The position numbers and the translations under genes were made by a program. A DNA stretch of 62,887 nt from an uncultured Dehalococcoidales bacterium (GTDB lineage: Bacteria > Chloroflexota > UBA6077 > FW602-bin22 > CADDYW01), in NCBI GenBank assembly GCA_964493975.1, contig CAZBQK010000002.1, positions 1 through 62,887 on the forward strand, written 5' to 3'. The notes beneath the pieces were generated by a model that saw only the letters and a program-made list of their open reading frames with translations, was not told the DNA's origin and searched no databases. Below, in pieces: positions 8,761 to 30,150 of this stretch (position 1 is the stretch's first letter; each line of letters starts with the position of its first letter).

Positions 8761-11700
8761 TTATGGACTGAATACAAGGACCTGATCGAGCTCGGAATCC
8801 GCGACGTAGACGGCGCCCGCCTTGTCCACGGCGATGCCGACTGGTCGCACCATCTGTCCAGCGGCACCAATCTGGTCGACTGGCTGACCGCGCGGATCGA
8901 GATGGACGACGCGGTGACCGCCCGGGTCGGATAGGTAGATGGCGCCGTCCGGGCCAAGCGCGACGTGGGCAGCATTCACCGAATCGGTTTGGGTTATTCC
9001 CAGGTCGCCGACTAACGAAAATGACTGGTCGTAATGACCGAGGACGTGGGCCGTTGGGTCGGTCACGTAAAACGAGCCGTCCGGAGTCACTGCCACGCCG
9101 GTTGGCTCCTGAAGCTGGCCCGTCTGTTTACCATGTTCGCCCAGATTCTTGACTGATTCTCCGTTTGAGTTGAAAACGGCAATTCTTCCAGTGCCAGTAT
9201 CGGCGATGTAGAAGTTTCCGAGGCCGTCGACCGCGATGCCTCGCGGATGATAGAACGCCGCCGACGGGCCACCAAACTTGCCAATAAAGTCACCAGTCGG
9301 CGAGAAGCGTTGGATCCAGGACGTTTCCGAATCCAGGACGACGAGGTTTCCGGCCGGATCGAAAACCGCGGCGCTGGGATCGACGAACTGTCCATCGCCC
9401 GTTCCCTCCTTCCCGATTGCCCGGACGAACTTGCCATCGCTGTTGAACACGTCGACTCGCTTTGCCCCGGCGTCGACGATTGCCACGTTGCCGTCGCCAT
9501 CCACCGCGACCCCCCTGGCCTCGACGAGCTGACCAGGTCCGTTACCTTTTTCACCAACTGTCCGACTCAGCTGAAGATTCGCCGACGGCAACGTGCCAAT
9601 GGTCGCCAGGTTGGATGGCGGCGGCAGCGCTTTGTCGTCCGGAGGGTTACCCGGCGAAGCCAGTGCCGGCCCGGAGAGGTCGATCGACGAGGCGATTGCT
9701 GGCGTGAAGATGGTTTGGGCATTCCGGAGGGGACCTGCTCGTTCCGGATACGCCGCCATTGGCGGAAACACCCGGTCGCCAGGGAGGAGCGACCTGCCAC
9801 CGCCCGGTGGTTGCCAGTAAACGTCGATAAAGCTGTGACCGGTTTGGTCGATAAATCGAATTTTTAGGTCATGGAGCCCTTCAGGAAGGGTGACTGCCCC
9901 TTCCACGTATTGGTCAAGTTGGCGGCTGTTGTCGACGACTAGTCGACCGTCGACGTACAACCAGGAGTAGTCGATTGACTGAGTCCCGAAGCGGTAGATC
10001 CCGGTCGTGGGAACGTCGAGTTTTCCGACCCATTCGACCGTAAATGGTTGGGCGAGGGGAAGGTCGTGATAATGTTTCGAAACGTCCGGATCGATCCTTT
10101 GGATCGAGGGAGCACCACTCCAGTTCGCGTTCGGATAGAAGCTCGCCTGGAGCCCTCGTGTCTTCACCGGCGGCGAAAAGAGCACGTCCGCCGGCACGAC
10201 CTGGAGCAATCCACCGGGTGCCTGCCAGGACAGGCGAAGGTCGGATGGTATTGCGAACGCGGCCGTCACTTCGACGTCGTGGGTTCCCTGTGCGAGGCGG
10301 AGCGATTTCTGCTGACCGCCGTTGACGACCGGCGATTGATCAAGACTGAACCGGGCGCTTGTTGGACCGTCGAGGCGGAAGACATACTCGCCAAAGGCGG
10401 GGGCTTTCAGCGTGCCGCGCCAGGTCACGACAAAGGGCGGCGGCATTGGCGGCGATTGGGCCCAGTGAAAATCGATCGCTCGGTCAACTCGGGAGAAGAC
10501 CGGCTTCGCGTCGTCGCTGGTGCCGGTCGCGTACTGACCGGTCAGCCCCTGGACCGCCTGAACCTGCTTCGTGTCGAGAATCGCCTCATAGAGGATTGCC
10601 GGAGAATTCGCCGTCGCCGAGAAGGATTGATATTTTCCACCCGGATAATCCTGATGAACGGCATCGATCCAGGACTGGTTGGCGTCGCTCCCAAACACGA
10701 CGACGTTCGCGGGAACTCGGAACGGCAGCGACGTGGCCGGATCGAAGGGAAGCTCGCGGGTCAACTGGGGAGCAACGAATTTGATCGTCGGTTGACCGAC
10801 GAAAACCGGATCCATGAACACGGAGTAGGAAGAGCCAAGCCGATTGGCTTCTCGAGCGATAATCGTTGCCTGCGTTGAAAACTCCGCCCAGGATGCGTTG
10901 TCCCAGATCTGATGAAACCAGTAGACGTTGACGTTTGCGTAGCCGACGAGCAACAGGAGGCAAGCGGTGGCAAGGTCGAGAACGCGTATTGAGATCGATC
11001 CAAGCCAACGCCAGATAACCGTCCACGCGTAAGCGATGGGCAAAGCGGCGAGCAGTGAGGTCGCCGGTATGACGCCAATGCTCCGGTAAGACTGTGGTGC
11101 TTCGAAGTCGAGCGACAGAATTCCCGGTAACAGGAGGAACACTAGCCAGAGAAGGAGTAGCGCGAATCGTGGCTGGCGACCGCGGGCGACCGCGAAGATG
11201 ATTCCCAGGACAAAAAGGCCGCCGGTGATATCGTCGAGCTCGGGCGACCCCGCCAAATTGTGACGTCCATTTCGGTCGCCGCGAAAGTTGAACATCTCGA
11301 TGTGCTGGACAACGTTCGAGACGAGCGCCTGGCGGGCTTCCTCCGGACTCTTTCCGGTAAAAAGCGATGCCGTTCGGGTGCGCTCGAGGAACGCCTGCCG
11401 GTCGCCTATTGCAAATAGAGCCAGCGGAGCCAGGATGAGAAATGCCACGAGCCCGGCCGCGACGAGCTGGCGCCCGAATTTGCGTACGAAGGTGACTCGG
11501 CCGTTGGCGACCAGGATGGCGAGCCACACGAGGATCAGCAGGGGAACGACGTTGAAGGCAAGATAAGAATTGAGGCCGAGGCCCACGGCGGTGCCACCAA
11601 GTACAAAGTCACGGGTTCGGCCGGTCCGAAATCCCCGGGCCAAAAAGAAAAGGGCGAACACCAGGAAGAAGGGCGCCGCGATGCCATTCATGCCGAACCG

Positions 11701-12282
11701 GCTGAAATTGACGTGCCAGCGGCTCTGGCTCAGTAGAAACGCCGCGATCAGGCCAACCCGCTGCGAAAACAGCTCGCGACCAAGCAGAAAGACGCCGGGA
11801 ATCGTCAATAGGCCCAGCGCGGCCGACGCCAGGCGAACGGCGAGAATGTTGGAGCCAACGGCCGAGATCCAGGCTGCCATGTAGTAAAAGAATAGAGCTG
11901 GCAGCTGGGTAAGGTCGGAAATGTAGATCGGTTTATAGCTGGGGTCGGTCAGAATCCGTGTCGCTACAAGTCCATTCTGGGCTTCGTCGAACCACACACC
12001 CTGGGGGATTGAGGCCAGATCCCAAAATCTGACCGCGGCACCGCCGAGCAGAATGACGACCATGACCGCCACGATCTGATGTCGACTCAGTGGTGGGTCG
12101 TCGTCCGCATCGATTGACCGGATCGCGTAGAGTCCCAGGGCTCCCGCGACGGCAAGTACGAAGAGGCCGCCCAACAGATCGCCCTGACGAAGGCCTAGGG
12201 CTTGGCCGAGGTAGGCAAGTGCCAGGGACACAACCATGGCAAGGGAGGCGCGAGCCCTTATCCGATATTGACGAATCGTCAC
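8761..12282 (-). CDS. GT-C-type (PMT/ArnT-like, GT39/GT83-like) membrane glycosyltransferase fused to two PA14 domains and a six-bladed NHL-repeat beta-propeller.
   Basis: The N-terminal polytopic region has a first-loop DE motif (GVWFDEAQNG). PA14 x2 lie at about 10549-10205 and 10156-9797 (GLTGQYATG...FVVTWRGTL..GEYVFRL; GLQASFYPNANWSG...FTVEWVGKL..GIYRFG..DYSWLYVDG). Six NHL blades lie at about 9540-8764 (GVAVDGDGNVAIVD, AAVFDPAGNLVVLD, RGIAVDGLGNFYIAD and others). I chose GTG 12282 because it overlaps the upstream stop (GTGA). ATG 12237 is an alternative. The ORF-track start at 12540 would overlap the upstream gene by 262 nt. Confidence 0.8.
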   Translation of the reverse strand: MTIRQYRIRARASLAMVVSLALAYLGQALGLRQGDLLGGLFVLAVAGALGLYAIRSIDADDDPPLSRHQIVAVMVVILLGGAAVRFWDLASIPQGVWFDEAQNGLVATRILTDPSYKPIYISDLTQLPALFFYYMAAWISAVGSNILAVRLASAALGLLTIPGVFLLGRELFSQRVGLIAAFLLSQSRWHVNFSRFGMNGIAAPFFLVFALFFLARGFRTGRTRDFVLGGTAVGLGLNSYLAFNVVPLLILVWLAILVANGRVTFVRKFGRQLVAAGLVAFLILAPLALFAIGDRQAFLERTRTASLFTGKSPEEARQALVSNVVQHIEMFNFRGDRNGRHNLAGSPELDDITGGLFVLGIIFAVARGRQPRFALLLLWLVFLLLPGILSLDFEAPQSYRSIGVIPATSLLAALPIAYAWTVIWRWLGSISIRVLDLATACLLLLVGYANVNVYWFHQIWDNASWAEFSTQATIIAREANRLGSSYSVFMDPVFVGQPTIKFVAPQLTRELPFDPATSLPFRVPANVVVFGSDANQSWIDAVHQDYPGGKYQSFSATANSPAILYEAILDTKQVQAVQGLTGQYATGTSDDAKPVFSRVDRAIDFHWAQSPPMPPPFVVTWRGTLKAPAFGEYVFRLDGPTSARFSLDQSPVVNGGQQKSLRLAQGTHDVEVTAAFAIPSDLRLSWQAPGGLLQVVPADVLFSPPVKTRGLQASFYPNANWSGAPSIQRIDPDVSKHYHDLPLAQPFTVEWVGKLDVPTTGIYRFGTQSIDYSWLYVDGRLVVDNSRQLDQYVEGAVTLPEGLHDLKIRFIDQTGHSFIDVYWQPPGGGRSLLPGDRVFPPMAAYPERAGPLRNAQTIFTPAIASSIDLSGPALASPGNPPDDKALPPPSNLATIGTLPSANLQLSRTVGEKGNGPGQLVEARGVAVDGDGNVAIVDAGAKRVDVFNSDGKFVRAIGKEGTGDGQFVDPSAAVFDPAGNLVVLDSETSWIQRFSPTGDFIGKFGGPSAAFYHPRGIAVDGLGNFYIADTGTGRIAVFNSNGESVKNLGEHGKQTGQLQEPTGVAVTPDGSFYVTDPTAHVLGHYDQSFSLVGDLGITQTDSVNAAHVALGPDGAIYLSDPGGHRVVHLDPRGQPVDQIGAAGQMVRPVGIAVDKAGAVYVADSELDQVLVFSP

Positions 12283-13367
12283 GGTCCAAGCTCGACTGGG
12301 TGAGCCGAGCGTACCCTGGCCCGTCGCCAGAGGTGGCCAAATGTGAGCCCGGTGCGCCACAAGAAGAACAAGCCGACGACGACGACCGGGAAGAATAGGA
12401 CCGCGTGGAGGACAATCGTCATCCCGAACGCGGTCGTCGTCGCTACGCCGAGAAGAACAAGCATACGTTCGGCCACCGCTTCGAATGCGCCAAGTCCGGC
12501 CGGAGCGAGAGGCACCGCCGTCGCCAGGTTCACAACGCAAATCGTTGTGATCGCGGAGAGAGGCGAGAGCGAAACGTCAAAGGCCGCGCCTACCAATACG
12601 TAGGTCACCGCGCCAATGACCCAGATCGCAATCGACAACACGAGCGTCTCGGTCAGGCGGCGAAGATCCTTCAGCGCTCCCAGTCCATCAATGAAACCGG
12701 CAATGGCACGCAGAGCCGGTAATCGGACTCGTGGCGGTAGGCGTTCGAGCGTTTCCCGGGCAAGATCGATCCAGATTCGTCGTCCCAGAATGAGAAGCGC
12801 GATGAACAAAGTTCCGATCCCGAAGGTGACACCAGCCAGGAGAGCGAGCGCGGATACCCAGTCGCCCCCCGGCCCAATCGCTGCTGGTATAAAAGGCAGC
12901 GTCACGAGCAGGAGAGTTACCACGGTGAGGCCGTCGACAATCCGCTCAATCGCCACCGATGCCAGTACGACGCCGATCTCCACCTGCTCGCGCTGAGCGA
13001 CGAGATAGGCTCGGCTTAGCTCCCCAATGCGAACCGGCAGAAGATTGTTCGCCATGTAGCCGATCGCGAGGACGGGATAAAGTCGCCGCGCGGGAATTTT
13101 CCCGGTGGGGCAGAGTAAGACTTGCCACCGCAGGGCCCGAAAGCCGAGGTCGACAAAGTACACGATGGTTGCCAGGAGGACATACGGATAGCGGATTCCG
13201 ACGACGATCTGACCCATTCCGGGCAGATCGACCTCTCGGGCGGCGAGCCAGAGAAGAACGATACTGATGGCGATTCCCCCGCCCACCCGTGCCCAAGGAA
13301 TCGCAAAAGGTGGTTGACCGGTCACCAGGCCGGGCCGGTCGCTAACGTCATTTGTCTGGTTCCTCAT
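12279..13367 (-). CDS. Flippase-like integral membrane protein (LPG_synthase_TM / UPF0104 family, MprF flippase-domain type).
   Basis: 362-aa polytopic protein; I recognise the family by overall pattern. The ATG start overlaps the GT2 stop (ATGA). GT2 plus UPF0104 is a recurrent gene pair. Confidence 0.65.
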   Translation of the reverse strand: MRNQTNDVSDRPGLVTGQPPFAIPWARVGGGIAISIVLLWLAAREVDLPGMGQIVVGIRYPYVLLATIVYFVDLGFRALRWQVLLCPTGKIPARRLYPVLAIGYMANNLLPVRIGELSRAYLVAQREQVEIGVVLASVAIERIVDGLTVVTLLLVTLPFIPAAIGPGGDWVSALALLAGVTFGIGTLFIALLILGRRIWIDLARETLERLPPRVRLPALRAIAGFIDGLGALKDLRRLTETLVLSIAIWVIGAVTYVLVGAAFDVSLSPLSAITTICVVNLATAVPLAPAGLGAFEAVAERMLVLLGVATTTAFGMTIVLHAVLFFPVVVVGLFFLWRTGLTFGHLWRRARVRSAHPVELGP

Positions 13368-14254
13368 GGAGCCGGCAATCGACCGTCATCACGCCGGACC
13401 TCCCCATGTAGTGGGGCGTCGCCAGGCGGCCGACCTGAAGCGGTGGTATCGTTGACAGCCGGGGCACTCCGGGGAGTCTGCGCAAGATAGTGGCGGCTCA
13501 CGACGTCGGCGAATCGCTTGCGGAATTGCGGGACCGGACGGGCGCCCAAACGGTCGAGGAGAAATCGGATAACCACTCGGAGGGTCGCAACGCCGTAGAT
13601 GACGCTATTCCGAAAGTTGACCGACGACGCCTCCTTGAAATAGCGGGTTGGGACGGGGACCTCGGCAATCTTAAAACCGAAGGCAACGGTCTGGGCGATG
13701 ACTTCGGTGTCGAAAACGAACTTATCGGAATTCAGAACGAAGGGAATCGTCGTCAGAAGTCGCCGACTATAAGCCCTAAATCCGGTATGACATTCGGAAA
13801 GCTGTTGTTGAAACGCCGCGTTTTCGACGATCGTGAGAAATCGATTGGAGAGAAACTTGTAAAGCGGCATGCCACCGGCCAGCGCTCCGCCGTCCAACAG
13901 CCGCGACCCGAGGACAAGGTCGGCTTCACCCCGTCGAATGGGCTCGATTAATGCCGGTACGCGACGAGAATCATATTGATAGTCGGGGTGCAACATGACG
14001 ACGATGTCCGCCCCGTCTTTCAGAGCTTCGAGGTAACACGTTTTTTGGTTGCCGCCGTATCCACGGTTTTGAACGTGGACGATGACGGTGAGGCCAAGCC
14101 TTCGCGCGATCTCAACCGTGTCATCGTGGCTAACGTCGTCCACGAGGATGACCTTGTCCACGACCCCGTTGGGTAGATCGGCATACGTTCGTTCGAGCGT
14201 CCGGGCGGCGTTATAGGCGGGCATCACCACGACGACCCGGTTCTCGCCAGACAA
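13364..14254 (-). CDS. Family-2 glycosyltransferase, Dpm1/polyprenol-phosphate hexose synthase-like.
   Basis: VVVMPAYNAARTLERT...VILVDDVSHDDT (GT-A DXD region) and HPDYQYD. TTG start sits 9 nt after GGAG. Confidence 0.85.
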   Translation of the reverse strand: MSGENRVVVVMPAYNAARTLERTYADLPNGVVDKVILVDDVSHDDTVEIARRLGLTVIVHVQNRGYGGNQKTCYLEALKDGADIVVMLHPDYQYDSRRVPALIEPIRRGEADLVLGSRLLDGGALAGGMPLYKFLSNRFLTIVENAAFQQQLSECHTGFRAYSRRLLTTIPFVLNSDKFVFDTEVIAQTVAFGFKIAEVPVPTRYFKEASSVNFRNSVIYGVATLRVVIRFLLDRLGARPVPQFRKRFADVVSRHYLAQTPRSAPAVNDTTASGRPPGDAPLHGEVRRDDGRLPAP

Positions 14255-14376
14255 CGAGGAATCTCCAGCCTTACCGCGGTTTATGGGTGGGCGACGCGGG
14301 AGCTTCTTTCATCGGACATCCGCCGACACAACGATCCCGGCTGGCCAGCGTTTGGACGTTGAGTTTCACCGATGGC

Positions 14377-14406
14377 ATTGTACGAGGAAGACGGCCTTTG
14401 GCGCAA
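14377..14406 (-). promoter_or_regulatory. Candidate sigma-70-type promoter TTGCGC-18-TACAAT for the GT2/flippase/GT-C-PA14-NHL sub-operon.
   Basis: Read on the minus strand in the only sizeable gap (182 nt) within the glycosylation locus. Confidence 0.3.
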
Positions 14407-14436
14407 TTCGTCTTTCGGCGGACCGTTCGCGGTCAG

Positions 14437-20200: not shown

Positions 20201-20218
20201 GTCTCTCCTCCCGATCCG

Positions 20219-22108
20219 TTAGGGTCGCCCGAGTTGGGTTTTGACAAAGACTTTAACGTATTCGTCGGTTTGGGTTGATGGCTGGCGATAGAGCCACCAA
20301 CGAACGAGATCTTTTAGCTGCAGCCCGGGAAGCGGTGCAGCGCTGGCAATCTGGAAGGTCTCGCCGGCGTACGCGCCACGGGGCGCTTTGGCCTGAGCCG
20401 GCACAATCGCCACGGCCGGCGCGTCGTCAATCGTGTTGACAACCAGGGCCTGCGGAAACTGACGGAGATACCAGGCGAGGGGCGCGGCCACCGGTGTTGC
20501 GATTTCGATGCTATCGGTGACCGGCCGACCTTCAAGCTGTCGTCCGATCTGTAGCTCGTTGACGACCGTCGAGACGTCTGTCGAGAGCGTTCGGATGTCC
20601 GGCGACGTCGCGGTGCCGACAAATGCCTCCGCCGGATTGAGACTCGAGCCCGGGTTGAGCATCATCGCCGCGTGAACGTTGAGAGTAAGCATGGCCACGA
20701 GTCCCACGACCGTGATGCCGGCCCAGGTCATCTCCCACCCTTGCTGCCACGCGAAAGTGGTCACCAGAATCGCGATGGCGAGCGCGGGTAAGACGAGGAT
20801 TTCCGGTGGAACGTTCGGGTCGGGCAAAGATAAGTTGCTCGCAGCGATGAGGGTCGATCCCAAGAATGACAGACCCAATGCGACGAAGAGAGCGATCGGC
20901 CGCCAGGACGTCTGATGAGCGAGCGACCGGGCCAGGCTCTCGCTGGCGAGTCCGGCGAGAAAACCGAGGGGCACGACGGCAATCGCAAACCAAGTTGGGT
21001 GAAAGCCGGTCGTGAGCGCGTATAAACCAATGGCCCCGCCCGCCCACCAAACCAGGAACTCGTCAAATCGGCGGCTCTTCTGCCGTATCGCGAAGATACC
21101 GCCGACGATTCCGAAGACGGCGGAAAAGGGTTCGTAGGCAAGGAGAAGCATTGGCAAAGAGACGAGGCCACGAGAACCGTTACCGGCCAGACCCGCGAGC
21201 CAAATTCCCAGCGGACCGGAAATGGCGTCTCCAAGGCCAATTGGATTGGTTCCGAGGCCAGTCGACACGACGACGTAGGCGAGACCCCCGACGAGAAGCG
21301 CGCCCCGAGCCGCCGCCGGCCGCGCTCGTAGTCGGGAAAGGACCGAAATGGTCCCGGCCGACATCGCCGGATCCGTCGGGTTTTCTCGGTCGGAATTGGG
21401 TGAGACCTCGCCCCGCCTGATCGACGTGACCACATATCCCCCAAGTATGAGGAGCAATGGAAAGGCAGCTGGTCCGCTCGTCGGGAGTAATGCCAGCAAG
21501 AATGCACCAAGATACATCAGCCGTGGCTTGAGATCTAACCTCTCGGACGTACAAACGAAGACAAGACCAAGCGCGAGTAACAGGGAAAGCGACGTGGAAT
21601 CGACCTGCCGCGACGCGACAATGAGAGTTGGCGACGTTGCAAGGGCCATGGCCGCGACGAGCGACCCAAGTCGCCCGAGCCTCGAGCGGAACGCGACCGG
21701 ACTCAGCGCCACGAGCGTTCCCGCGACCATCGGGAGCAAGCGTGACGTCGCGTCGGATGCTCCGAGCATGAGAAAGATCAGGGTGTTCGCATAAATGAGC
21801 AGTGGGGCCGACGAGACTGACAAGCCGGTGCGTTGAAAGATTCGCCAGGATTCCATCGCAAGCGCGCTCTCGTTCGACTGGAGCGGCGCACCGTCGAGGT
21901 TGAGCGCGCGCACCCCGACGGCGACCGCCGCGACGGCAAGCCAGGCCACGAGCTCGAGACTCGTCGTCGGCGTCCAAGTGCTTGACGACGCGTGCTCGAC
22001 CGGCACCGGCTTGCCGCCGGTTACTAGGACCGTGGTGGATCGACCGAGATTCGAGCGATCCGCTTCCGACGCAAACGTGCCGCGCGCCCGCCGACGGATG
22101 GGAGGCAT
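20219..22108 (-). CDS. TIGR03663-like polytopic membrane protein, a paralogue of 17201-20200 with degenerate signature residues.
   Basis: Aligns by eye to the neighbour (..LGASDATSRLLPMVAGTLV..RSRLGRLGSLV..TSPTLI..). It has NE in place of DE and SAP in place of HGP. The ATG start shares one base with the upstream stop (TGATG). Confidence 0.65.
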   Translation of the reverse strand: MPPIRRRARGTFASEADRSNLGRSTTVLVTGGKPVPVEHASSSTWTPTTSLELVAWLAVAAVAVGVRALNLDGAPLQSNESALAMESWRIFQRTGLSVSSAPLLIYANTLIFLMLGASDATSRLLPMVAGTLVALSPVAFRSRLGRLGSLVAAMALATSPTLIVASRQVDSTSLSLLLALGLVFVCTSERLDLKPRLMYLGAFLLALLPTSGPAAFPLLLILGGYVVTSIRRGEVSPNSDRENPTDPAMSAGTISVLSRLRARPAAARGALLVGGLAYVVVSTGLGTNPIGLGDAISGPLGIWLAGLAGNGSRGLVSLPMLLLAYEPFSAVFGIVGGIFAIRQKSRRFDEFLVWWAGGAIGLYALTTGFHPTWFAIAVVPLGFLAGLASESLARSLAHQTSWRPIALFVALGLSFLGSTLIAASNLSLPDPNVPPEILVLPALAIAILVTTFAWQQGWEMTWAGITVVGLVAMLTLNVHAAMMLNPGSSLNPAEAFVGTATSPDIRTLSTDVSTVVNELQIGRQLEGRPVTDSIEIATPVAAPLAWYLRQFPQALVVNTIDDAPAVAIVPAQAKAPRGAYAGETFQIASAAPLPGLQLKDLVRWWLYRQPSTQTDEYVKVFVKTQLGRP

Positions 22109-24714
22109 CAGTTCGCCCCTCGCGATTGATAGATCGTGACGCCCGGATTCCGGTAGGCGACGTCCATGAATTGACTGAACTTATTCAGCGACGCCTCGTT
22201 CTGCGCGTACTTTTGACGTTCCATCGGACCAACGTACACGAATTGCGCCTTGTATTTGAGAATAAGGTCTTGAGCGACTCGCCAATCGGAGCTTCGGTAA
22301 ATTGTATCGATGTCACGTTTTCGCTCGTCTTCGACCGGGATGATCGCTGCGCCATGCCATTGGATTTCGTGAAAGTCCCAGCCGAGGATCGTCGGGAGTC
22401 CAGTCATCCAAGCCACCTCAGCAAAGGCGCTATACGACCCGCCAGTCGCTTCCACGATCGTGGCGGTTCCCTTGACATTGTGATTTAACCACGCGATGCC
22501 GGCCGCGTCGTCGGACTGAAAACGGGCAAAGTAGCTTAGTCCGTTCAGATCTAGCTCCGTTGTAAACCCGTCGGTTCGTGATGCCAACGCCGCCGGCGCG
22601 TAAACCCCCGCCGCGAGGATCAGGAGGGATGCCGCCGCGAGCCAGGTCAGCGCCATCGGGCGGGGCAAAGCCCAGCGATTGCTAGCGAGTGATGACGGCC
22701 GGGTCGCCTCGGAGCGCAGCGAGGGGACCGGATCCGTCGCCAACCTCCCCGAGAATGCCGCTCTCCCTAGAACGAAAATCGTATAACCGCCAACAATTGC
22801 CAGGAGCTCCCACGTCTGAAAGTATAGTTTGAAGACCGTATTCATCCGGCTGCTGAACGAGTCCTCAATGTAGACAAGCTCGGTGCCGAACAACAACAGC
22901 ATCGCGACGAACAGCAAGATCAGGACATAGACTTTGTCGGCGTTTGGCATTGGCGTCGGCGCGCCCCCAGCTATCCCTGCCGGTTGACCCTGGGCGTCGG
23001 GGCTCGACGACGAGATCGCTACTCGATGATTGTCCATCGACTCGAAATATGGGCCACCGGCTGCCGCACCCGCGTCCGCGAGGTACCGAAGCGTCAAAAC
23101 CAGAGCGCCAACGCCAATCGGAATAACCAGGACCAGAGCCGGAGCGTCGACGTAGATCGCGACGGCCACCAGCGCGGCCACTCCGATCCAAACGAACGAG
23201 CTTCGAATCCAGGCAGGTCCGGCTTGAGGCTCACCGTCAACGCGGGATCGGTCCCCCGCGAACAGAAGGTCAGTCGCGACGAGCGACGCGGCGAGAAATA
23301 GGAGCGGTCCCCAAAAGATCAGGAAATAGCCGAGATGACTGTGAAGCCGAACGACCCCGAGCAGGCCAGTCGCCTGGGAGCGAAAAGTCAGGTAAAACGG
23401 AAAGTACGCCAGGACCGAAATGAAAAGTGCGACCAGCCCGAACGACGCGACATCGCGCAGCCAGCGCAGGTCAAATCGGGGACGATTCACGTAGCGTCGC
23501 GCGGCGAAGGCGCAGACGAGAACGAAAAGATAGGTCAGGATGTCCCACGCGTTGAGCAGAAACATCGACCCAAACAGGAAGATGATGAATGCCGCGTCAA
23601 ACGCGACGGTTCGGACTCGTCTCCACGGAAACTCTCCCGGCTCGCGAAGGAAGCTCAAGGCGAACGCGAGGCAGACAAATGCAAACGGAAGAGCGAGCAA
23701 ATGCGGGTGAAGGTCGCCAAGCAGGAAGCTAAAGAATGGAAACTCGGTGATCGTGTTATACCCGTCGGGTGGGGGCGTACCGGAGGGGTAGTCGAGAATC
23801 ACCCGAGACGCCCGGAACCACCACCAGTTGTCCTGCGCCTCGGTCGGGTACCACTTCTGACTGAAAAACGGGTGATCGAGGTGCCAGATCGCCAGCGATT
23901 GCCAGAACTGGGTCGAACCAAAGCCATGAGCGTGAAGCAGCTCAAAAACGCCTTCGAGGTTACCGAGTAACGCGACGAAAATCGCGGTGAGTCCGCCGAC
24001 GATCCAACCCGGTCGTTCGGCCGACGCCGGTACCAAGCTCATTTCGCTTCCGTCACGGGCGGCACTCGCCGGCGGCTGGCCTTCGGCTCGAGATCCATCG
24101 ACGAGCGCGTGACCCAGCGCAAATGCGCCGGTCACGGCCGCCGCGAACAGCGTTGCGATTGCCAGGTTGAAGGCCACGGCCGGGTCAACTCCGGACGCCT
24201 CGGTGATCGCGGCGACGACGACGTAACCAAGGTAGTAGTAACTGATCGAGTTGCCCGATAGCCACGGGTCGGCCGGTGGGAATCTTGAGCTACGCAAGAT
24301 CCCATTCAAGAAGCCGAGCTCCATCGGTTTTTCGGTGGCTTCAATATTTGGAATGTGCGCCCGAACGAAGGCCCAGACGAGGAATGCGCCAATGAAGAGC
24401 GCTTCGACGGCCAGCAATTGCGCGCGTCGATTCGCCCAGAGCGATCGTAGCTCGGCCGCAGCTTCCGGGACGCCAAGCCAGCCGGCGACCGCGATGACAA
24501 CGACGAGTAGGAGGACGGTTGCTCCGCTGTTCGACCACAGCCCAAACGTGCAGCCGGCCCACAGCGCCACGGCAACCGCCAGCGCTCCGACCGGACGGGC
24601 GAAGGCGTAGCCGCGGTCCGGAAGGTTCCTGAACGCTCGAATGGCCAGCGGAAGCGCGGCGAAACCCATCACCTCGAGCACGATTAACCATTTAAGAAGA
24701 TCAAGCATAAGCAA
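22108..24714 (-). CDS. DUF2298 / Chlor_Arch_YYY domain membrane protein (stand-alone form).
   Basis: LPDRGY, EKPMELGFLN, DPWLSGNSISYYYLGY (the YYY motif), ITEFPFFSFLLGDLHPH and GLPTILGWDFHEIQW. TTG 24714 or ATG 24708 lies directly after the upstream stop. Confidence 0.8.
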   Translation of the reverse strand: MLMLDLLKWLIVLEVMGFAALPLAIRAFRNLPDRGYAFARPVGALAVAVALWAGCTFGLWSNSGATVLLLVVVIAVAGWLGVPEAAAELRSLWANRRAQLLAVEALFIGAFLVWAFVRAHIPNIEATEKPMELGFLNGILRSSRFPPADPWLSGNSISYYYLGYVVVAAITEASGVDPAVAFNLAIATLFAAAVTGAFALGHALVDGSRAEGQPPASAARDGSEMSLVPASAERPGWIVGGLTAIFVALLGNLEGVFELLHAHGFGSTQFWQSLAIWHLDHPFFSQKWYPTEAQDNWWWFRASRVILDYPSGTPPPDGYNTITEFPFFSFLLGDLHPHLLALPFAFVCLAFALSFLREPGEFPWRRVRTVAFDAAFIIFLFGSMFLLNAWDILTYLFVLVCAFAARRYVNRPRFDLRWLRDVASFGLVALFISVLAYFPFYLTFRSQATGLLGVVRLHSHLGYFLIFWGPLLFLAASLVATDLLFAGDRSRVDGEPQAGPAWIRSSFVWIGVAALVAVAIYVDAPALVLVIPIGVGALVLTLRYLADAGAAAGGPYFESMDNHRVAISSSSPDAQGQPAGIAGGAPTPMPNADKVYVLILLFVAMLLLFGTELVYIEDSFSSRMNTVFKLYFQTWELLAIVGGYTIFVLGRAAFSGRLATDPVPSLRSEATRPSSLASNRWALPRPMALTWLAAASLLILAAGVYAPAALASRTDGFTTELDLNGLSYFARFQSDDAAGIAWLNHNVKGTATIVEATGGSYSAFAEVAWMTGLPTILGWDFHEIQWHGAAIIPVEDERKRDIDTIYRSSDWRVAQDLILKYKAQFVYVGPMERQKYAQNEASLNKFSQFMDVAYRNPGVTIYQSRGAN

Positions 24715-27700
24715 TCATTTTACCTGGTAGATCCGGACGCCAAGCTGGTCGTACACGACATTCAATGACGTTCCAACCAGAGAATCGAACTTGGCCCGCG
24801 CCCGGGGATAAAACCCTTGCTCGAGCTCGCCGTCGATAATGTACTTCACGTCGTAACGACGTAGGAGCGATAACGTCGTGTCGGTCGATGGACTGTCGTA
24901 CATTTGCCGGACGTCGTTCAGCCGATCGTCAACGGTGGTTTGGAAGCCCCAGCGCTGCTGCTTCTGGTGCCAGTCCCAGCCAATCACGGTCGGGAGCCCG
25001 GTGTAAATCGCGATCCGCGAACCCCATCGGTATAGCGGTCGAGTTCCTTCGAGAATTGTCGGGGTGCCTTGAATGTTGTCCTGGAGCCATTGAATCGCGG
25101 CTTTGTCGGTGGCAAAGTGCAATTGAGCCGTCAGATGGGATGTTTCGTCCGAATCGGTGTAGATCGCGCTGTCCATGTAGGCTGTGCCGTCAAGGGTTGG
25201 AGGAATCGACGTGTTAAATCGTTGTGATACTCTCGACTCGGTCCCAAGAATCGGATACACCGCCGACATGACGAAGAAAGCGGCCAAGACCGTCACCCAC
25301 GCTCGACGGATCCAGATCGAACGGAGCGATCCAAGGCGGTCCAGAATCCGGATCAAGGCAACCGCACCGCCTATGCCAAACAGCACCCAGATTTGTTCGT
25401 AGAACTTGAAAATCGTGTTCATTCGACCAACGTCGCCGTCGATGACGACCTGCTCGGTGCCGACGCTAATGGCGAGGCCAGTTGCGAAGAGCAAGATCAT
25501 AAAACAGTCTTCAACGGTGCGGTCGCGTCGGAGACCAAGAACCAGCGCCACGAGAAGGAACACCAGGAGCACCCCGGTCAGCGCCATCCCCCCAACTATC
25601 GAAGCGACAACGGCTACCGCGACCGCGACCAAACCGTACAAAAACAGCACCGTGTCGGTGGCCGGGGCGCGGACAAGCGCCTGACGAAGCTGAATGATCC
25701 GTGGCGTCAGCTCCCAGTTAGTGGCGATCAGTCGGATCGAGCGAACGATTCCCGTGCGCCGGTAGACCGCCCAACCCTCCAGGACAAAGTACGACAGCAT
25801 AATGACAAGGAATAGGCCATTTATTACGAAATACCAACGAATCTCGGACTTCTCGTCGCTTGGGTGGACCCCGGAGTAGAAGGACTGAAAATAGGCGCTG
25901 AAGGGTCGGTACAAAAGCTGACTCAAGACGACGATCAGCGCAAACGCGCCAAGCCGGATCGCCAGGCTTCGGACACCGCGCTTGCGCGACGCATACCATG
26001 GCACCAACAGCGCGAGCGCAATCAGACCGAGGTACGTTGGATAATCCCAGGAATTTGTCGGATATAGGGATCCCACTGCCAAACCGGTCACGACGAGAGT
26101 CGCGATCGCGGCCGCCGTCATCGGCGCCAAGGTAACCGCGCGTCTCACTCTCTCCTTGTCCCTCAGCGTGGCGCTAACGCGGTCGACGACATCCTCCAAT
26201 AAAGCCGTGCGCGACTTCAGAAGATTCACGCACAAAGCTAAGACGAGGAGGGTCAGCGGGAGGCCGATCAGATGGGCGTGCAGGTCGGCAAACAAGAAAG
26301 TGAAATATGGGAATTCATTGATCGAGCCGGTACCCCCTTTGATATCGAGGAGGGCGAGCATGCGCGTGCTCGACCAGTACCAATCCGGGGGAATGTTCAA
26401 CGGACGGCCGCCAAGGACAATCGCGTAAACGCCGCTCAGGAAGCTCACGAGCGAAGTAACTCCCGGGAGGTCGCTCTGAGTTGGGGACGCCGACTGCTGG
26501 CTGATCTCGCCGGCCAGCTGGCTAAAGCCGCCAATGTTCCCGAGCAAACACACCATGATCGAAGCCAGGACTCCCCCAACGATCGCCATTCGGTCAGGAG
26601 GGTCGTCACCCCGGCGGATGAGACCCAGCGCGACCGTGAACGTGCCTCCGACGGTCAGCGCAAAAAGTAGCGGCACGATCAGGTTATAGGCAGTCGTCGG
26701 GACGACGCCGGAGATCTTAGCAAGCGTGCCGACGAGGATTTGGCCAAAGTAGTAATAGTTGAGGTACCCGCCGGCGTACCACGGATCGTACGGCGGATAA
26801 ATCGGGCTCCGGATCGCGGCGGTGAGATAGGCGAGATCCATTGGCTTTTCGCCACCCAGGGTGGGGTGCCATAGGTCAGGATTCAAGCTTCTGACCCAGA
26901 CGTCGTACAAGAATGCGACCCAGAACAGACCTTCTTCGAACAGGACCAGCCGGCGACGGCGAATGAAGAACTCCGCGATCTCGGCGCGCTGCCAAAAAGC
27001 GACAGCCCATCCGACAGCCAGGATGAAGGCAAGCGCCACCAGAGCTTCCAGTCGGGTCGCAGTGCCGATGCCAACGCTGACCGCGATCCAGCTGACCCAA
27101 CCGACGAGCAGGACCCCGAGGGTCTTCGACACCAGGAAACCGCGGTCTGGAAGGAATCGGAATACCAGGAAACCGATCGGAGCAGCGGCCAAACCGATCA
27201 GCGCGGTCATGACGATCCAAACAAGTAACGGCACCCGATTAAAGATGTCGTTCCGGTCGAACAGGTCGTGGAACGTTCCCCCCACCTGGACGATTGCCGA
27301 TTGCGCGGGCGACAGCAGGAGCGACCGGTAGCGCGGCGACGAGTCGGTGGGTGTCAGATCGCCCGCGGTCGGTGGAGGTCCGATCAGGGCGCGAAGCTGA
27401 TCTGGACTCAGACGCTGAGTCTTCTTGAAGACGAGCACTCGCTGGTGGTCATAGACCGAAAAGCTCTCGTCCGCGTGGCCAAGATTGATCGTTATCGGCG
27501 CTGGACTGATCCGGCGAAGTAGAGCCGGAGTTGGGAGACCCGGGTCGGCGAGAGTATCGTCGACGAAAGCGACGCCCAAAAGATTCGGGTAGCGCTCGGC
27601 AACGTCGACCAGGGTGAACCCGAGCTGCTCGCCGAAGAGCTTTTCGTAGTACCGCCGCGACATCGGGTACCGGGCCGGTATTCGCGGTACCGTTCCGTAC

Positions 27701-29724
27701 AATCGGTTGCTGAAGAACACGATGTAATCCGCGTTGACGAGGTTGCCCACGACTTCGTTCAGCTTGGCGGCGTTGTCGTCTTCGTACATCGGCATCGTTA
27801 GATTCTGATAATTGAAGCTTTCGGCAGTGAGCGTACCTCCGTCGACCGGAACTGGGACCGGCATTCCTTCTTCCCAGTGCTCGGTGGCGAGGACGGATCC
27901 GCGGGGCGCGTTCGCGTAAAGCCACTCCGACGCCTGGACCGGCGGCGTTGGCGAGGCGTACATGTGGTCGTAGGCGAGACTGTAGAAGGCCGAAAACCCG
28001 AGGACGATTGCAATTGCCCCCAGGGCAAATCGCGTCGGCCAACGGCTAGCAAAAAAACGCGAGGCAGTCGGCGATTCGCGGACCGCGAGGGGAACGGGCA
28101 ACGTCGTCGGAGGTTCGTCAAACCCGGGGGCCATTCGTGGAATGTGGAGCGCGTCTCGTCCAATGCCATGGCCGTTTGGTGGCGCTTCGGTGGGGGCGAC
28201 GTTGTCCGCAGCGAGCAGGTCGAGCGACAATCCTTTCATCGCGAACCAGCGCTCGGTGGCAGCGTCCACGACGGACGCTCGCTCACGAACCAAAAGGCTC
28301 GGTCCGTCGTTCACAGAGTTCGTCGCCGCGAAGGACTCGGCTCTCGTCGAGTCCGGTTCTAGTTGATGCTCAATGGGACCGGAGAACCCGTCGACGAGCT
28401 CGAGCTCCTTGAGCTCGGTCTCCGACGTCGTCTCCGCGATTAACTCTGGGGGCAGCGACGTGCTCGGCGCCTCGGACTCTAAACTGGAGATTTGGGTTGG
28501 GTTAAGAACCGCTCGCCAGTGACGTGCAACCTCGAAGATCCAGACGAGAAACATCGCGGCGAATAGAGCGAGGATCGGGGAGATCGGGAGCATATATCTC
28601 AGGAACTTCGCCCAGAAGTTACCGGTTATCGCGAAGTAAGGCAGAACGTAAGACAGGAGGATGACGTCCCCGGCCCGAAGGAGTCGAAAGTTGCGAGCAC
28701 AAACGTAGACCGTCCCGGCGATCATGGCCAAACCGAGTGGAACGCCGACGCCAAATATGGTTAAGTTTTCGAGGAAGTACAAGTAGGCTGGCCGGCCGAA
28801 GTACTGGCGGGTGTAGGGTAGATCGGCGACCCCGCGGACCATACTCCCCTGCTCGACAATCCCGCCAATAAAGTGTTTGAAGTCAATAATCGCGAACGGT
28901 TCAGCCACGATGAAGGCGGCCGCAACGGCGACGAGCGTCAACGTGGCGAAGGCAGTCGCCTGAGAGATCGCAACCTGGCGCCGTCGATGGAAGCGCAGTC
29001 GGCCAATCGAATCGTTCGTAAAGAGCCGGAGCAGCTGCGCCATCCCGACCGGTACGAGGATCGGCGCGGCGCTGGCTTTGGTTGCTAACGCAAATCCACA
29101 GAAGACGCCGGCCAGAACGGCATCCCGCCGCCGACCGGTGTGGAGGAACGACGCCGACGCCGCGATCGCAGCCAGGACGAGGGCGGTGAGAATCGTGTCC
29201 GTCGCGTAAAAGTGCGAAAGCTGAATGTCAATGACCGAGAACGTCACCAACCCAGCGGCCAGGAGCGCCACTCGAGGCCCGTAGAAGCGCTTTCCGATTC
29301 GATAGATAAGATAAACGCTGGCCGTGTCGAATAAGGCCGAGATTGGCCGGCCAATTAGTCGAAGGTTCCCGAGGTCGTTCGTCGCGTCAAGGGCGTGGAC
29401 AAATGGTAGGGCGTGGTTGATCCCCGCGAGAATCGCGGCGACGATCCGGAGCAGATAAAACGAGAACGTCCCGTACGAATACGAGAAATCACGCGGTATG
29501 AGACTGCTCTGAGGGGAAAGAAGGTCGGAGAAATTGAGCGGCCAGGACAGGCTGATGGCCGCCGTGCTCATCAGGATGAATCGCTCATCTGGATGATAAA
29601 GGTGGCCAAGGTCCCAGTCGAATTGGTAAACCCGAAGACCAAACGCGACGAGCAGAAGGGCGGCTAGGCCGACCGATTCTCGACGACGGAATACGTTCAG
29701 CATGCCGTCGCCTCGGAAGGACAT
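24715..29724 (-). CDS. Giant fusion protein: N-terminal GT-C (PMT_2-like) glycosyltransferase module, acidic low-complexity spacer, C-terminal DUF2298/Chlor_Arch_YYY module.
   Basis: The N-terminus carries LYHPDERF (a DE motif in the first loop) and PMT_2-like helices. The C-terminal half parallels the 868-aa neighbour motif for motif (FLPDRGF, EKPMDLAYL, DPWYAGGYLNYYYFGQ, INEFPYFTFLFADLHAH, GLPTVIGWDWHQKQQRW). I chose ATG 29724, which follows GGAGGAG. The ORF-track GTG 29829 is the maximal start. Confidence 0.8.
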   Translation of the reverse strand: MSFRGDGMLNVFRRRESVGLAALLLVAFGLRVYQFDWDLGHLYHPDERFILMSTAAISLSWPLNFSDLLSPQSSLIPRDFSYSYGTFSFYLLRIVAAILAGINHALPFVHALDATNDLGNLRLIGRPISALFDTASVYLIYRIGKRFYGPRVALLAAGLVTFSVIDIQLSHFYATDTILTALVLAAIAASASFLHTGRRRDAVLAGVFCGFALATKASAAPILVPVGMAQLLRLFTNDSIGRLRFHRRRQVAISQATAFATLTLVAVAAAFIVAEPFAIIDFKHFIGGIVEQGSMVRGVADLPYTRQYFGRPAYLYFLENLTIFGVGVPLGLAMIAGTVYVCARNFRLLRAGDVILLSYVLPYFAITGNFWAKFLRYMLPISPILALFAAMFLVWIFEVARHWRAVLNPTQISSLESEAPSTSLPPELIAETTSETELKELELVDGFSGPIEHQLEPDSTRAESFAATNSVNDGPSLLVRERASVVDAATERWFAMKGLSLDLLAADNVAPTEAPPNGHGIGRDALHIPRMAPGFDEPPTTLPVPLAVRESPTASRFFASRWPTRFALGAIAIVLGFSAFYSLAYDHMYASPTPPVQASEWLYANAPRGSVLATEHWEEGMPVPVPVDGGTLTAESFNYQNLTMPMYEDDNAAKLNEVVGNLVNADYIVFFSNRLYGTVPRIPARYPMSRRYYEKLFGEQLGFTLVDVAERYPNLLGVAFVDDTLADPGLPTPALLRRISPAPITINLGHADESFSVYDHQRVLVFKKTQRLSPDQLRALIGPPPTAGDLTPTDSSPRYRSLLLSPAQSAIVQVGGTFHDLFDRNDIFNRVPLLVWIVMTALIGLAAAPIGFLVFRFLPDRGFLVSKTLGVLLVGWVSWIAVSVGIGTATRLEALVALAFILAVGWAVAFWQRAEIAEFFIRRRRLVLFEEGLFWVAFLYDVWVRSLNPDLWHPTLGGEKPMDLAYLTAAIRSPIYPPYDPWYAGGYLNYYYFGQILVGTLAKISGVVPTTAYNLIVPLLFALTVGGTFTVALGLIRRGDDPPDRMAIVGGVLASIMVCLLGNIGGFSQLAGEISQQSASPTQSDLPGVTSLVSFLSGVYAIVLGGRPLNIPPDWYWSSTRMLALLDIKGGTGSINEFPYFTFLFADLHAHLIGLPLTLLVLALCVNLLKSRTALLEDVVDRVSATLRDKERVRRAVTLAPMTAAAIATLVVTGLAVGSLYPTNSWDYPTYLGLIALALLVPWYASRKRGVRSLAIRLGAFALIVVLSQLLYRPFSAYFQSFYSGVHPSDEKSEIRWYFVINGLFLVIMLSYFVLEGWAVYRRTGIVRSIRLIATNWELTPRIIQLRQALVRAPATDTVLFLYGLVAVAVAVVASIVGGMALTGVLLVFLLVALVLGLRRDRTVEDCFMILLFATGLAISVGTEQVVIDGDVGRMNTIFKFYEQIWVLFGIGGAVALIRILDRLGSLRSIWIRRAWVTVLAAFFVMSAVYPILGTESRVSQRFNTSIPPTLDGTAYMDSAIYTDSDETSHLTAQLHFATDKAAIQWLQDNIQGTPTILEGTRPLYRWGSRIAIYTGLPTVIGWDWHQKQQRWGFQTTVDDRLNDVRQMYDSPSTDTTLSLLRRYDVKYIIDGELEQGFYPRARAKFDSLVGTSLNVVYDQLGVRIYQVK

Positions 29725-29749
29725 CGCCTCCTCCAAGCTGGTTCTCCGT

Positions 29750-29779
29750 ATTTTAGCACGGGTGGAAAAAGAGACACAA
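29750..29779 (-). promoter_or_regulatory. Candidate promoter TTGTGT-18-TAAAAT upstream of the glycosylation locus.
   Basis: Read on the minus strand in an AT-richer patch about 20-50 nt upstream of ATG 29724. Confidence 0.35.
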
Positions 29780-29883
29780 TTTTCATTCCAGCCCGGTGGT
29801 TCCGTGGGCGTGGTAGCATGACTCCGCACATCTTACGATAACGGTTGGTTAAACTCCACCAGCCGACCGTGGGGGCACCGTTT

Positions 29884-30150
29884 ATGTCGACCTCTGATCC
29901 AGAAGTTGCCGCCTATAACCAGGCACTCGTCCGTGCCTTGCGCACGACCGATGCCGAGGAGGTGCGACGTTTCGCCGGAATCTGGGGCGATCGTCTGGGC
30001 AACCGTGGTCTCAAACAATTGGCAAAGGCATCGCCGGAGGTGGTCGAGCGTCGGATGTGGATGATGATCTACGACCGGCCGGACCTGGCCGACCTGCATC
30101 AGCAGGCGGAAGAATGGTTCGAGTCCCACGAGGAGCCCGAAACCGAATGA
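29884..30150 (+). CDS. Hypothetical small acidic protein.
   Basis: ORF reading MSTSDPEVAAYNQALVRAL...EEWFESHEEPETE. Its stop overlaps the next ORF's start (ATGA). I recognise no family. The start could be TTG 29845 instead. Confidence 0.45.
   Translation: MSTSDPEVAAYNQALVRALRTTDAEEVRRFAGIWGDRLGNRGLKQLAKASPEVVERRMWMMIYDRPDLADLHQQAEEWFESHEEPETE

Follow-up and report, generated by a model that had tools for sequence, protein, structure and literature searches.

About 21 kb of the genome of an uncultured Dehalococcoidales bacterium (Chloroflexota) is taken up by eight genes in which we see a single operon for the assembly of an extracytoplasmic glycan from polyprenyl-phosphate-linked sugars, a reading that we hold with a probability of roughly 0.6. 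The genes lie on the 62,887-nt contig CAZBQK010000002.1 (assembly GCA_964493975.1), which was analysed whole and is referred to here as the window, and where eight co-directional open reading frames (ORFs) on the minus strand fill positions 8761-29829. Six of these encode giant polytopic proteins predicted, from profiles and structural models, to hold seven modules of the GT-C glycosyltransferase fold belonging to three lineages; the remaining two encode a soluble glycosyltransferase of the GT2 type and a flippase-like membrane protein. A first-pass annotation, made by a model from the letters of the sequence, had described eight consecutive minus-strand genes with one gap longer than 20 nt, and our ORFs coincide with them exactly. 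Gene models were set from the translations and the start-codon contexts and are given here in order of transcription:

g1, 24715-29724, minus strand, 1669 amino acids: PMT_2-type GT-C module and C-terminal DUF2298/TIGR03662 module
g2, 22108-24714, minus strand, 866-868 amino acids: stand-alone DUF2298/Chlor_Arch_YYY protein
g3, 20219-22108, minus strand, 629 amino acids: degenerate TIGR03663-like paralogue
g4, 17201-20200, minus strand, 999 amino acids: TIGR03663 (Agl23-family) GT-C module and NHL beta-propeller
g5, 14437-17217, minus strand, 926 amino acids: C-terminal PMT_2-type GT-C module
g6, 13364-14254, minus strand, 296 amino acids: soluble GT2 of the polyprenyl-phosphate sugar synthase type
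g7, 12279-13367, minus strand, 362 amino acids: MprF-flippase-like polytopic protein (LPG_synthase_TM/UPF0104/TIGR00374)
g8, 8761-12282, minus strand, 1173 amino acids: PMT_2-type GT-C module, two PA14 domains and NHL propeller

The likely start of g1 is the ATG at 29724, preceded by GGAGGAGG, and the mechanical ORF extends to a GTG at 29829. Further on, g1 and g2 abut, g2 and g3 overlap by 1 nt (TGATG), g3 and g4 are 18 nt apart with a Shine-Dalgarno-like GGGAGGAG in the spacing, and g4 and g5 overlap. The sole gap of more than 20 nt, 182 nt long, separates g5 from g6, after which g6 and g7 share 4 nt (ATGA), as do g7 and g8 (GTGA), the start of g8 being a GTG that overlaps the g7 stop. A simple terminator scan of the cluster gave 14 candidates against 21.6 in shuffled sequence, with no convincing internal terminator among them, and a promoter scan gave no signal above the shuffled expectation. 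Since both scans are at or below the shuffled level, the boundaries of the operon are not to be drawn from them.

Predicted GT-C modules and the two smaller proteins

Domains were called with Pfam and NCBIfam profiles against their curated cut-offs. All domains proposed in the first-pass annotation were recovered in this way, that of g3 with a TIGR03663 score under the cut-off, and the motifs quoted there (HPDERF, SISYYYLGY, HHDES and HGP) are all present. The profiles place g1, g4, g5 and g8 in PMT_2 and hence in the GT-C superfamily, as had been proposed, and the models of the TIGR03663 and DUF2298 modules match GT-C enzymes. Taken together, the profile matches and the GT-C-like models give seven GT-C-fold modules in six proteins, one of them (g3) degenerate, rather than the five putative transferases counted at first: PMT_2-type in g1 (N-terminal), g5 and g8, TIGR03663/Agl23-type in g3 and g4, and DUF2298-type in g1 (C-terminal) and g2.

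The three PMT_2-type modules exceed the gathering score of that family. In g1 the module (45.9 bits) covers about nt 28465-29724, with the HPDERF loop motif at residue 44, and is followed by a low-complexity linker and a domain of about 250 amino acids that has no Pfam match at E <= 1. In g5, hydropathy gives the order transmembrane helix 1, a domain of about 200 amino acids (this N-terminal domain, too, is free of Pfam matches at E <= 1), transmembrane helix 2, a proline-rich repeat linker and the PMT_2-type GT-C module, which spans about nt 14437-15924 and scores 38.6 bits at residues 525-655. The g5 linker contains a 30-nt tandem repeat at 16020-16133 (3.8 copies, 90% identity) that codes for proline-rich decapeptides (PPLPAGRADV-like) between transmembrane helix 2 and the GT-C core, and it is the portion that cannot be aligned between g5 orthologues. 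The g8 protein has the motif WFDEAQ at residue 97 in its PMT_2-type module (54 bits), PA14 domains in two stretches (88 bits; about nt 9643-10485) and an NHL propeller (93 bits; about nt 8761-9597).

The GT-C module of g4, at about nt 18443-20080 and with HHDES and HGP, is a full-length member of TIGR03663 (293.6 bits against a cut-off of 126.25, model positions 3-433 of 435); the protein also passes the PMT_2 cut-off (35 bits) and carries five NHL repeats, which make up a C-terminal beta-propeller at about nt 17201-18043. An AlphaFold model of the module (mean predicted local distance difference test, pLDDT, 86.2) was compared with the Protein Data Bank (PDB) by Foldseek, and GT-C enzymes make up all of its top 31 matches, with ArnT (5ezm, E 3e-8) in first place and target-normalised template modelling scores (TM-scores) of at most 0.62; STT3, Pmt4, ALG9/ALG12, PglB, EmbA/B/C and AftD are further matches. 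Alignment of g4 with 35 homologues shows D65 and E66 to be invariant in all 36 sequences; a haloarchaeal Agl23 has YDE at the aligned position and likewise retains HGP and YYSRFxRxD. Its neighbour g3 scores 102.7 bits against TIGR03663 over its whole length and has no Pfam match. It has QSNES where the family has HHDES, has lost HGP, QPWYYY and EKMPW, and retains 23 of the 56 residues that are invariant among g4 orthologues; in eleven g3 orthologues 20-27 of the 56 are retained, and from the Asp-Glu pair only the Glu is always kept. Judged by its sequence, g3 is thus a conserved but degenerate, diverged paralogue that always precedes g4, not a regular TIGR03663 member, and because the putative catalytic residues of the family are lost it is probably a non-catalytic partner of g4. 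Neither g3 nor g4 matches the Pfam Agl23_C domain of haloarchaeal Agl23.

The two DUF2298 modules match their family over the full model: the C-terminal module of g1 (nt 24715-27231) scores 532 bits and g2 509 bits against TIGR03662 (cut-off 300), and 372 and 364 bits, respectively, against PF10060 (cut-off 27.8). Both contain the motifs found to be invariant in an alignment of 41 DUF2298 homologues, namely LPDRG, EKPM, DPW, YYY, [ST]I[NT]EFP, DLHxH, NxWD, RMNT and GWDxH. The AlphaFold model of g2 (pLDDT 85.6, predicted TM-score 0.90) has only GT-C enzymes among its top 8 Foldseek matches in the PDB, the best being DPY19 (7zli, E 3.5e-5), AglB (5gmy, 7e9s, 3waj) and ArnT, with four entries for Archaeoglobus AglB, and its C-terminal 155 or so residues separately match the globular domain of AglB-S2 (3vu0; target-normalised TM-score 0.51, probability 1.0). 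At the sequence level such a relationship is not seen: neither g1 nor g2 matches the STT3 profile (PF02516) at E <= 0.01, and a DUF2298 profile run against PDB sequences returned no AglB or PglB, the matches obtained being spurious (E > 0.5). TITEF and GWDxH may correspond to the TIXE and WWDYG motifs of STT3; the DUF2298 sequences have GWD[FW]H about 65 residues into the C-terminal domain instead of WWDYG. The invariant acidic residues of the family are D31, E126, D147, E322 and D332. A positive-inside analysis of the loops, with helices taken from the model, was ambiguous and did not fix the equivalent of the first extracytoplasmic loop. By hhalign DUF2298 and TIGR03663 show no relationship (probability 1%) and are thus two separate GT-C lineages at the sequence level.

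In ArnT, PMT and STT3 enzymes the catalytic acid sits shortly after the first transmembrane helix, and an acidic motif is found 10-15 residues after that helix in g1 (HPDERF), g4 (HHDES), g8 (WFDEAQ) and g5 (VQDSV). Searched against PDB sequences, g2, g7 and the GT-C modules of g1 (N-terminal), g4, g5 and g8 gave no match.

The two remaining proteins belong to families of a different kind. By a crude hydropathy scan g6 is without a transmembrane segment and the other seven proteins are polytopic. The g6 protein matches Glycos_transf_2 with 78 bits (cut-off 23), and its best NCBIfam matches are AglJ (84 bits, cut-off 325), PpgS (76, cut-off 370) and a haloarchaeal Dol-P-hexose transferase (62, cut-off 375); its sole relative in the PDB is the Pyrococcus Dol-P-Man synthase 5mlz (E 1.8e-11). 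The likeness of g6 to polyprenyl- and dolichyl-phosphate hexose synthases should therefore be read, as far as sequence goes, as one of functional type only. The g7 protein matches LPG_synthase_TM over the complete model (168.3 bits against 33.4, positions 4-302 of 302) as well as TIGR00374 (83.1 bits, cut-off 43.2). Profile calls gave no GtrA-family protein in the window, and the flippase candidate g7 is of a different family.

Gene order and distribution of the cassette

Relatives of the g4 module were sought by a pattern scan with one genome per species of the GTDB and were found in at least 593 species genomes, the best 80 of which are all metagenome-assembled genomes (MAGs) of Chloroflexota (Dehalococcoidia, Anaerolineae, Caldilineaceae, Chloroflexia and SAR202); a DUF2298 search returned more than 2,500 protein clusters. 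The nearest public relatives of the genome under study are MAGs at 69-88% protein identity. We mapped the modules of the window onto loci L001-L085, 84 of them with a TIGR03663 anchor. Five other genomes have the same g1-g2-g3-g4-g5-g8 succession, at about 70% identity in L001 and L006, about 50% in L002 and L008 and 43% in L003, and because the order of the six large genes recurs at such distances the arrangement is not due to chance. Orthologues of g8 are present in L001-L003, L005, L006 and L008. The synteny on which the first-pass annotation made its claim depend thus holds for the six large genes, while g6 and g7 are less constant in place: L001 has the GT2 gene without the flippase-like gene, and L002 and L003 have neither at the position between g5 and g8.

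Over the wider set of loci the most constant neighbours are a DUF2298 gene directly upstream of the TIGR03663 gene, on the same strand and within 2.5 kb, in 54 of the 71 loci with enough flank, and a g7-like gene, variable in position, within 3.5 kb downstream (32/70). An unbiased clustering of all ORFs in the loci gave the same ranking (TIGR03663 > DUF2298 > LPG_synthase_TM). From these counts the ancestral unit is DUF2298-TIGR03663, often together with a flippase-like gene, and the locus in the window is a lineage-specific expansion of it, in which a GT2 and flippase-like pair has come to lie between g5 and g8. Two loci have a GT2 gene between the TIGR03663 and the flippase-like gene. The TIGR03663 module is fused to NHL repeats in 31 of 70 loci.

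Other lineages have amplified other genes, with three tandem TIGR03663(+NHL) genes in L085 (8210-18385) and two or three PMT_2+PA14 genes in L010 (13989-22033). Differing gene expansion is typical of glycan-diversifying loci, and these amplifications suggest lineage-specific diversification of the product. A minimal cassette with the order rnc, ftsY, DUF2298, TIGR03663, LPG_synthase_TM, flavoprotein and nuoE/F/G-like genes is seen in L004, L005 and about 24-31 other Dehalococcoidia loci (e.g. L029 6510-7475 and L083 14263-15651). The flavoprotein, of the amine-oxidase/phytoene-desaturase-like type, follows the flippase-like gene in 31 loci; it could have the lipid carrier as its substrate, or else the arrangement may simply go back to the common ancestry of the genomes. 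No homologue of the flavoprotein or of ftsY is present in the window. In 11 loci (e.g. L070 4067-5119) an ORF with a sortase domain is found a few kb upstream of the DUF2298-TIGR03663 cassette, which hints weakly at a connection with the anchoring of surface proteins.

The two families had been described in the first-pass annotation as restricted mostly to Chloroflexi and Archaea; for DUF2298 this is too narrow, as a plasmid of Pseudobutyrivibrio (Bacillota) carries DUF2298 within a polysaccharide biosynthesis cluster. On the archaeal side, the Agl23-family gene of the Halogeometricum borinquense plasmid pHBOR02 (L086 8971-11342) overlaps a downstream GtrA-family gene by 4 nt, and the pair adjoins two GH18 chitinase-like genes and genes for PKD-domain proteins. 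In three chromosomal haloarchaeal loci (L088-L090) the Agl23 gene is stand-alone, with no GtrA partner and no DUF2298 nearby. Since the GtrA adjacency occurs only on the Halogeometricum plasmid, an argument from archaeal synteny for Agl23 acting with a flippase gene is weak.

A model of glycan assembly and its alternatives

In the model that we infer, which covers donor type, flipping step, topology, acceptor and sequential action, g6 would use a nucleotide sugar to load polyprenyl phosphate with a hexose or hexosamine on the inner face of the membrane, and g7, translationally coupled to g6, would move the lipid-linked sugar to the outer face. There the six giant polytopic proteins with their seven GT-C-fold modules would attach sugars, drawn from this lipid donor, to an acceptor in the envelope, and the NHL propellers (g4, g8) and PA14 domains (g8), lying outside the membrane, would hold the acceptor or the growing glycan. 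The fold and the neighbouring GT2 and flippase-like genes are what leads us to infer a polyprenyl-phosphate-linked sugar as the donor. From the number and diversity of the GT-C modules and the fixed gene order, the locus would encode a multi-step or multi-subunit machine making a complex glycan, and by analogy this suggests a likeness in logic to the mycobacterial Emb/Aft/Mpt cascades. As acceptor, a protein of the surface layer or of a sheath could be considered, or else a polysaccharide of the wall.

Several observations support this model. The overlapping stops and starts, with no convincing terminator between the genes, have the architecture of an operon, and the confident models of two formerly uncharacterised families point to a GT-C fold. 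Acidic motifs follow the first transmembrane helix in the N-terminal modules of g1 and g8, in g4 and in the C-terminal module of g5, with D65/E66 kept as far away as in haloarchaeal Agl23, and among solved structures g6 is related only to a dolichyl-phosphate mannose synthase. To this can be added the recurrence of the six-gene order, the adjacency of DUF2298 and TIGR03663, the downstream flippase-like gene and the two loci with an intervening GT2, and furthermore the polysaccharide context in Pseudobutyrivibrio and the archaeal precedent of UPF0104, PMT/STT3-like and AglD-like GT2 genes (PMC5898192).

There are also points that weigh against it. A g6-like GT2 is present in only 4 of the 84 loci, which means that donor synthesis is usually encoded elsewhere and that its link to the GT-C genes is circumstantial; the complete make/flip/transfer logic that the first-pass annotation attributed to the locus would be present here, with g6, g7 and the GT-C proteins, but its GT2 lies outside the conserved core and its flippase-like gene changes position. 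All equivalog scores of g6 are far under the cut-offs and do not assign it a sugar. The Foldseek TM-scores are modest (0.3-0.56) despite probabilities of 1.0, topology was derived from crude hydropathy and homology only, and no candidate for the acceptor was identified. Finally, the flipping activity reported for Agl23 (PMC11182771) would mean that g3 and g4 may not be transferases.

Gtr-type systems (GtrA/GtrB/GtrC; CsbB or GtcA with YfhO; ArnC/ArnEF/ArnT) combine a GT2 synthase, a small flippase and an outer-face GT-C enzyme, three roles that g6, g7 and the GT-C proteins would fill. However, g7 belongs to the MprF/UPF0104 type, unlike the GtrA or EmrE-like flippases of those systems, the locus has seven GT-C modules where they have one, DUF2298 and TIGR03663 are outside the known GtrC, YfhO and ArnT families, and the GT2 is not conserved in cis, so that the locus shares the Gtr logic without being a member of the Gtr type. 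In the mycobacterial and corynebacterial cascades (EmbA/B/C, AftA-D and MptA-C, with Ppm1 or decaprenylphosphoryl-arabinose synthesis genes), GT-C enzymes polymerise envelope polysaccharide from polyprenyl-P-monosaccharides, and their GT-C cores are fused to large extracytoplasmic carbohydrate-binding domains. The presence of several GT-C enzymes and of large domains fused to GT-C cores is common to both, whereas a sequence-level relationship is lacking, Emb is a distant structural match only, the fused domains here are NHL and PA14, and the phylum is another. The DUF2298 model finds its best structural matches in the oligosaccharyltransferases AglB/STT3/PglB and in DPY19, and its C-terminal globular domain is AglB-like, but there is no STT3 or DPY19 profile match and no WWDYG, identity is 10-12% and the global TM-score about 0.3.

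In Archaea, UPF0104 proteins were predicted by Makarova and colleagues in 2015 to act as flippases in glycosylation pathways, and a conserved neighbourhood was noted that combines UPF0104 (arCOG00899), PMT/STT3-like proteins (arCOG00563; MJ_1079, HVO_2052) and an AglD-like GT2 (PMC5898192). These are the same three protein types with the same predicted glycosylation logic, but the precedent is a prediction only and has no DUF2298, no multi-GT-C expansion and no NHL or PA14 fusions. Full-text literature searches returned no functional study under the names DUF2298, TIGR03662, TIGR03663 or Chlor_Arch_YYY, and a search for an oligosaccharyltransferase in Chloroflexi gave nothing relevant. The statement that no system of this composition has been characterised accordingly stands as far as these searches go, and the logic itself was no longer new. 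None of the conditions checked that would have overturned the first-pass annotation (large proteins outside the GT-C superfamily, a pathway already characterised, lack of synteny) came true, and its interpretation is supported with corrections. The principle of make/flip/transfer is already known, and what is uncharacterised in bacteria, and widespread, are the DUF2298 and Agl23-type families.

For TIGR03663 the nearest studied relative is Agl23 of Haloarcula hispanica, from the Agl22/Agl23 pair. The g4 protein is a TIGR03663 member and has YDE/HHDE, HGP and YYSRFxRxD in common with haloarchaeal Agl23, which differs in being about 570-650 amino acids long, in having Agl23_C, in being without NHL and in standing alone in three chromosomal loci. 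According to PMC11182771, Agl23 had been proposed as a flippase for dolichyl-phosphate hexoses by Lu et al. 2020, and PMC11182771 itself reports that the purified protein translocated M5GN2-PP-Dol when placed in proteoliposomes, and that Agl23 rescued an rft1 deletion in yeast. The NCBIfam name of TIGR03663, 'flippase activity-associated protein Agl23', agrees with this, so that the link to Agl23 made in the first-pass annotation was correct, and the flippase label competes with a role as transferase. One could assume from this that g3 and g4 are flippases of lipid-linked sugars, with the DUF2298 and PMT_2 proteins as sole transferases and g7 flipping a different lipid; the family label, the proteoliposome and yeast results (PMC11182771) and the want of catalytic-looking residues in g3, which would fit a transport role, all agree with it. 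Nevertheless, the g4 model matches GT-C glycosyltransferases only and its sequence passes the PMT_2 cut-off, and Asp-Glu, HGP and YYSRFxRxD do not vary between Chloroflexota and a haloarchaeon, which would be expected of an active site. TIGR03663 genes also have dedicated flippase-type neighbours, LPG_synthase_TM in the Chloroflexota loci and GtrA on the Halogeometricum plasmid, and the binding of polyprenyl-linked sugars by a GT-C enzyme could lead to their scrambling in liposomes even if this is not its native role. We therefore regard a flippase role of g3 and g4 as distinctly unlikely; the fold, the Asp-Glu motif and the adjacent flippase-like genes suggest that TIGR03663 proteins are transferases.

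It could also be that the DUF2298 proteins are protein glycosyltransferases like AglB, STT3 and DPY19 and that the locus serves protein glycosylation (e.g. of surface-layer glycoproteins), with the other GT-C enzymes extending or decorating the glycan. This overlaps with the explanation that we prefer and differs from it by committing to a protein acceptor. The best structural matches of g2, DPY19 and AglB, are protein-modifying enzymes, its C-terminal 155 amino acids match the AglB-S2 globular domain, the invariant TITEF and GWDxH may recall STT3 motifs, and the sortase ORFs upstream of the cassette fit such a role. Against it, DUF2298 has no sequence-level likeness to STT3, AglB or any PDB entry, even by profile, its GWDxH, about 65 residues within the domain, differs from WWDYG, the PA14 domains and the Pseudobutyrivibrio context point to polysaccharide, and DUF2298 is not found near the three chromosomal haloarchaeal Agl23 genes. 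A protein acceptor is for these reasons unlikely. A broader proposal in the same direction, that DUF2298 forms a third lineage of AglB/STT3/DPY19-like protein glycosyltransferases, working with Agl23-type GT-C enzymes that would have been mis-assigned as flippases, in a surface-protein glycosylation system common to Archaea and Chloroflexota and expanded here to seven modules, seems to us rather doubtful. Very improbable, in our opinion, is that g6 and g7 form an independent membrane-glycolipid module like GpgSDF or HexSDF, merely inserted in an unrelated GT-C operon. The GT2 and flippase pair between g5 and g8 is indeed found only in this lineage, and in Pseudomonas and Clostridium UPF0104 proteins are partnered by glycolipid synthases (PMC12713373). 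However, g6 is a GT2 nearest to polyprenyl- and dolichyl-phosphate sugar synthases and not of the GT4 GpgS type, g7-like genes recur beside DUF2298-TIGR03663 in Dehalococcoidia, Anaerolineae and Chloroflexia, usually without a GT2, and the g7 stop overlaps the g8 start.

Read as an operon for glycan assembly, the locus offers a concrete, testable model of how an envelope glycan may be built in Chloroflexota, with GT-C-fold families in a conserved cassette with an MprF-type flippase-like gene. Chloroflexota are abundant in soils, sediments and oceans, and their cell envelope is poorly understood. The model also bears on the identity of the flippases of dolichyl- and polyprenyl-phosphate sugars, as Agl23, proposed to be one of them, is perhaps a transferase, and two candidate flippase types, g7 versus g3/g4, can be separated by experiment in this natural system.

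Flanking genes and base composition

The flanks consist of housekeeping and metabolic genes. Downstream lie rpsF, ssb, rpsR, a peptidyl-prolyl isomerase gene, folP and folK, and upstream, after a gap of about 740 nt, a LuxR-type regulator, an O-methyltransferase and glycogen-metabolism genes. The G+C content is about 0.60 and uniform along the window, and an Rfam search of the window gave no match. That the locus might be a mobile element or a horizontally acquired island was considered and is rejected on account of the uniform G+C, the housekeeping flanks and the occurrence of the same flank in L001; the region is an ordinary chromosomal stretch of an uncultured Chloroflexota bacterium.

One further feature, divergent from g1, may belong to the locus:

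small ORF, 29845-30150, plus strand, 101 amino acids

It has no Pfam match at E <= 1. L001 and L006 have it at the same position upstream of their g1 orthologues (61% identity over 79 amino acids and 58%, respectively), and its product may be a small regulator of the locus or an accessory protein. Near the locus, two minus-strand genes encode predicted envelope proteins, one with VanW and PG_binding_4 domains (301-2499) and one with a BNR/Sortilin-type beta-propeller (2589-4577); the former implies that the organism has peptidoglycan, which is relevant to the possible acceptor. Over 10000-30000 the plus strand has an AT skew of +0.16 to +0.21, near zero elsewhere in the window, which reflects the T-rich codons of hydrophobic residues in genes coded on the minus strand and is not a replication feature.

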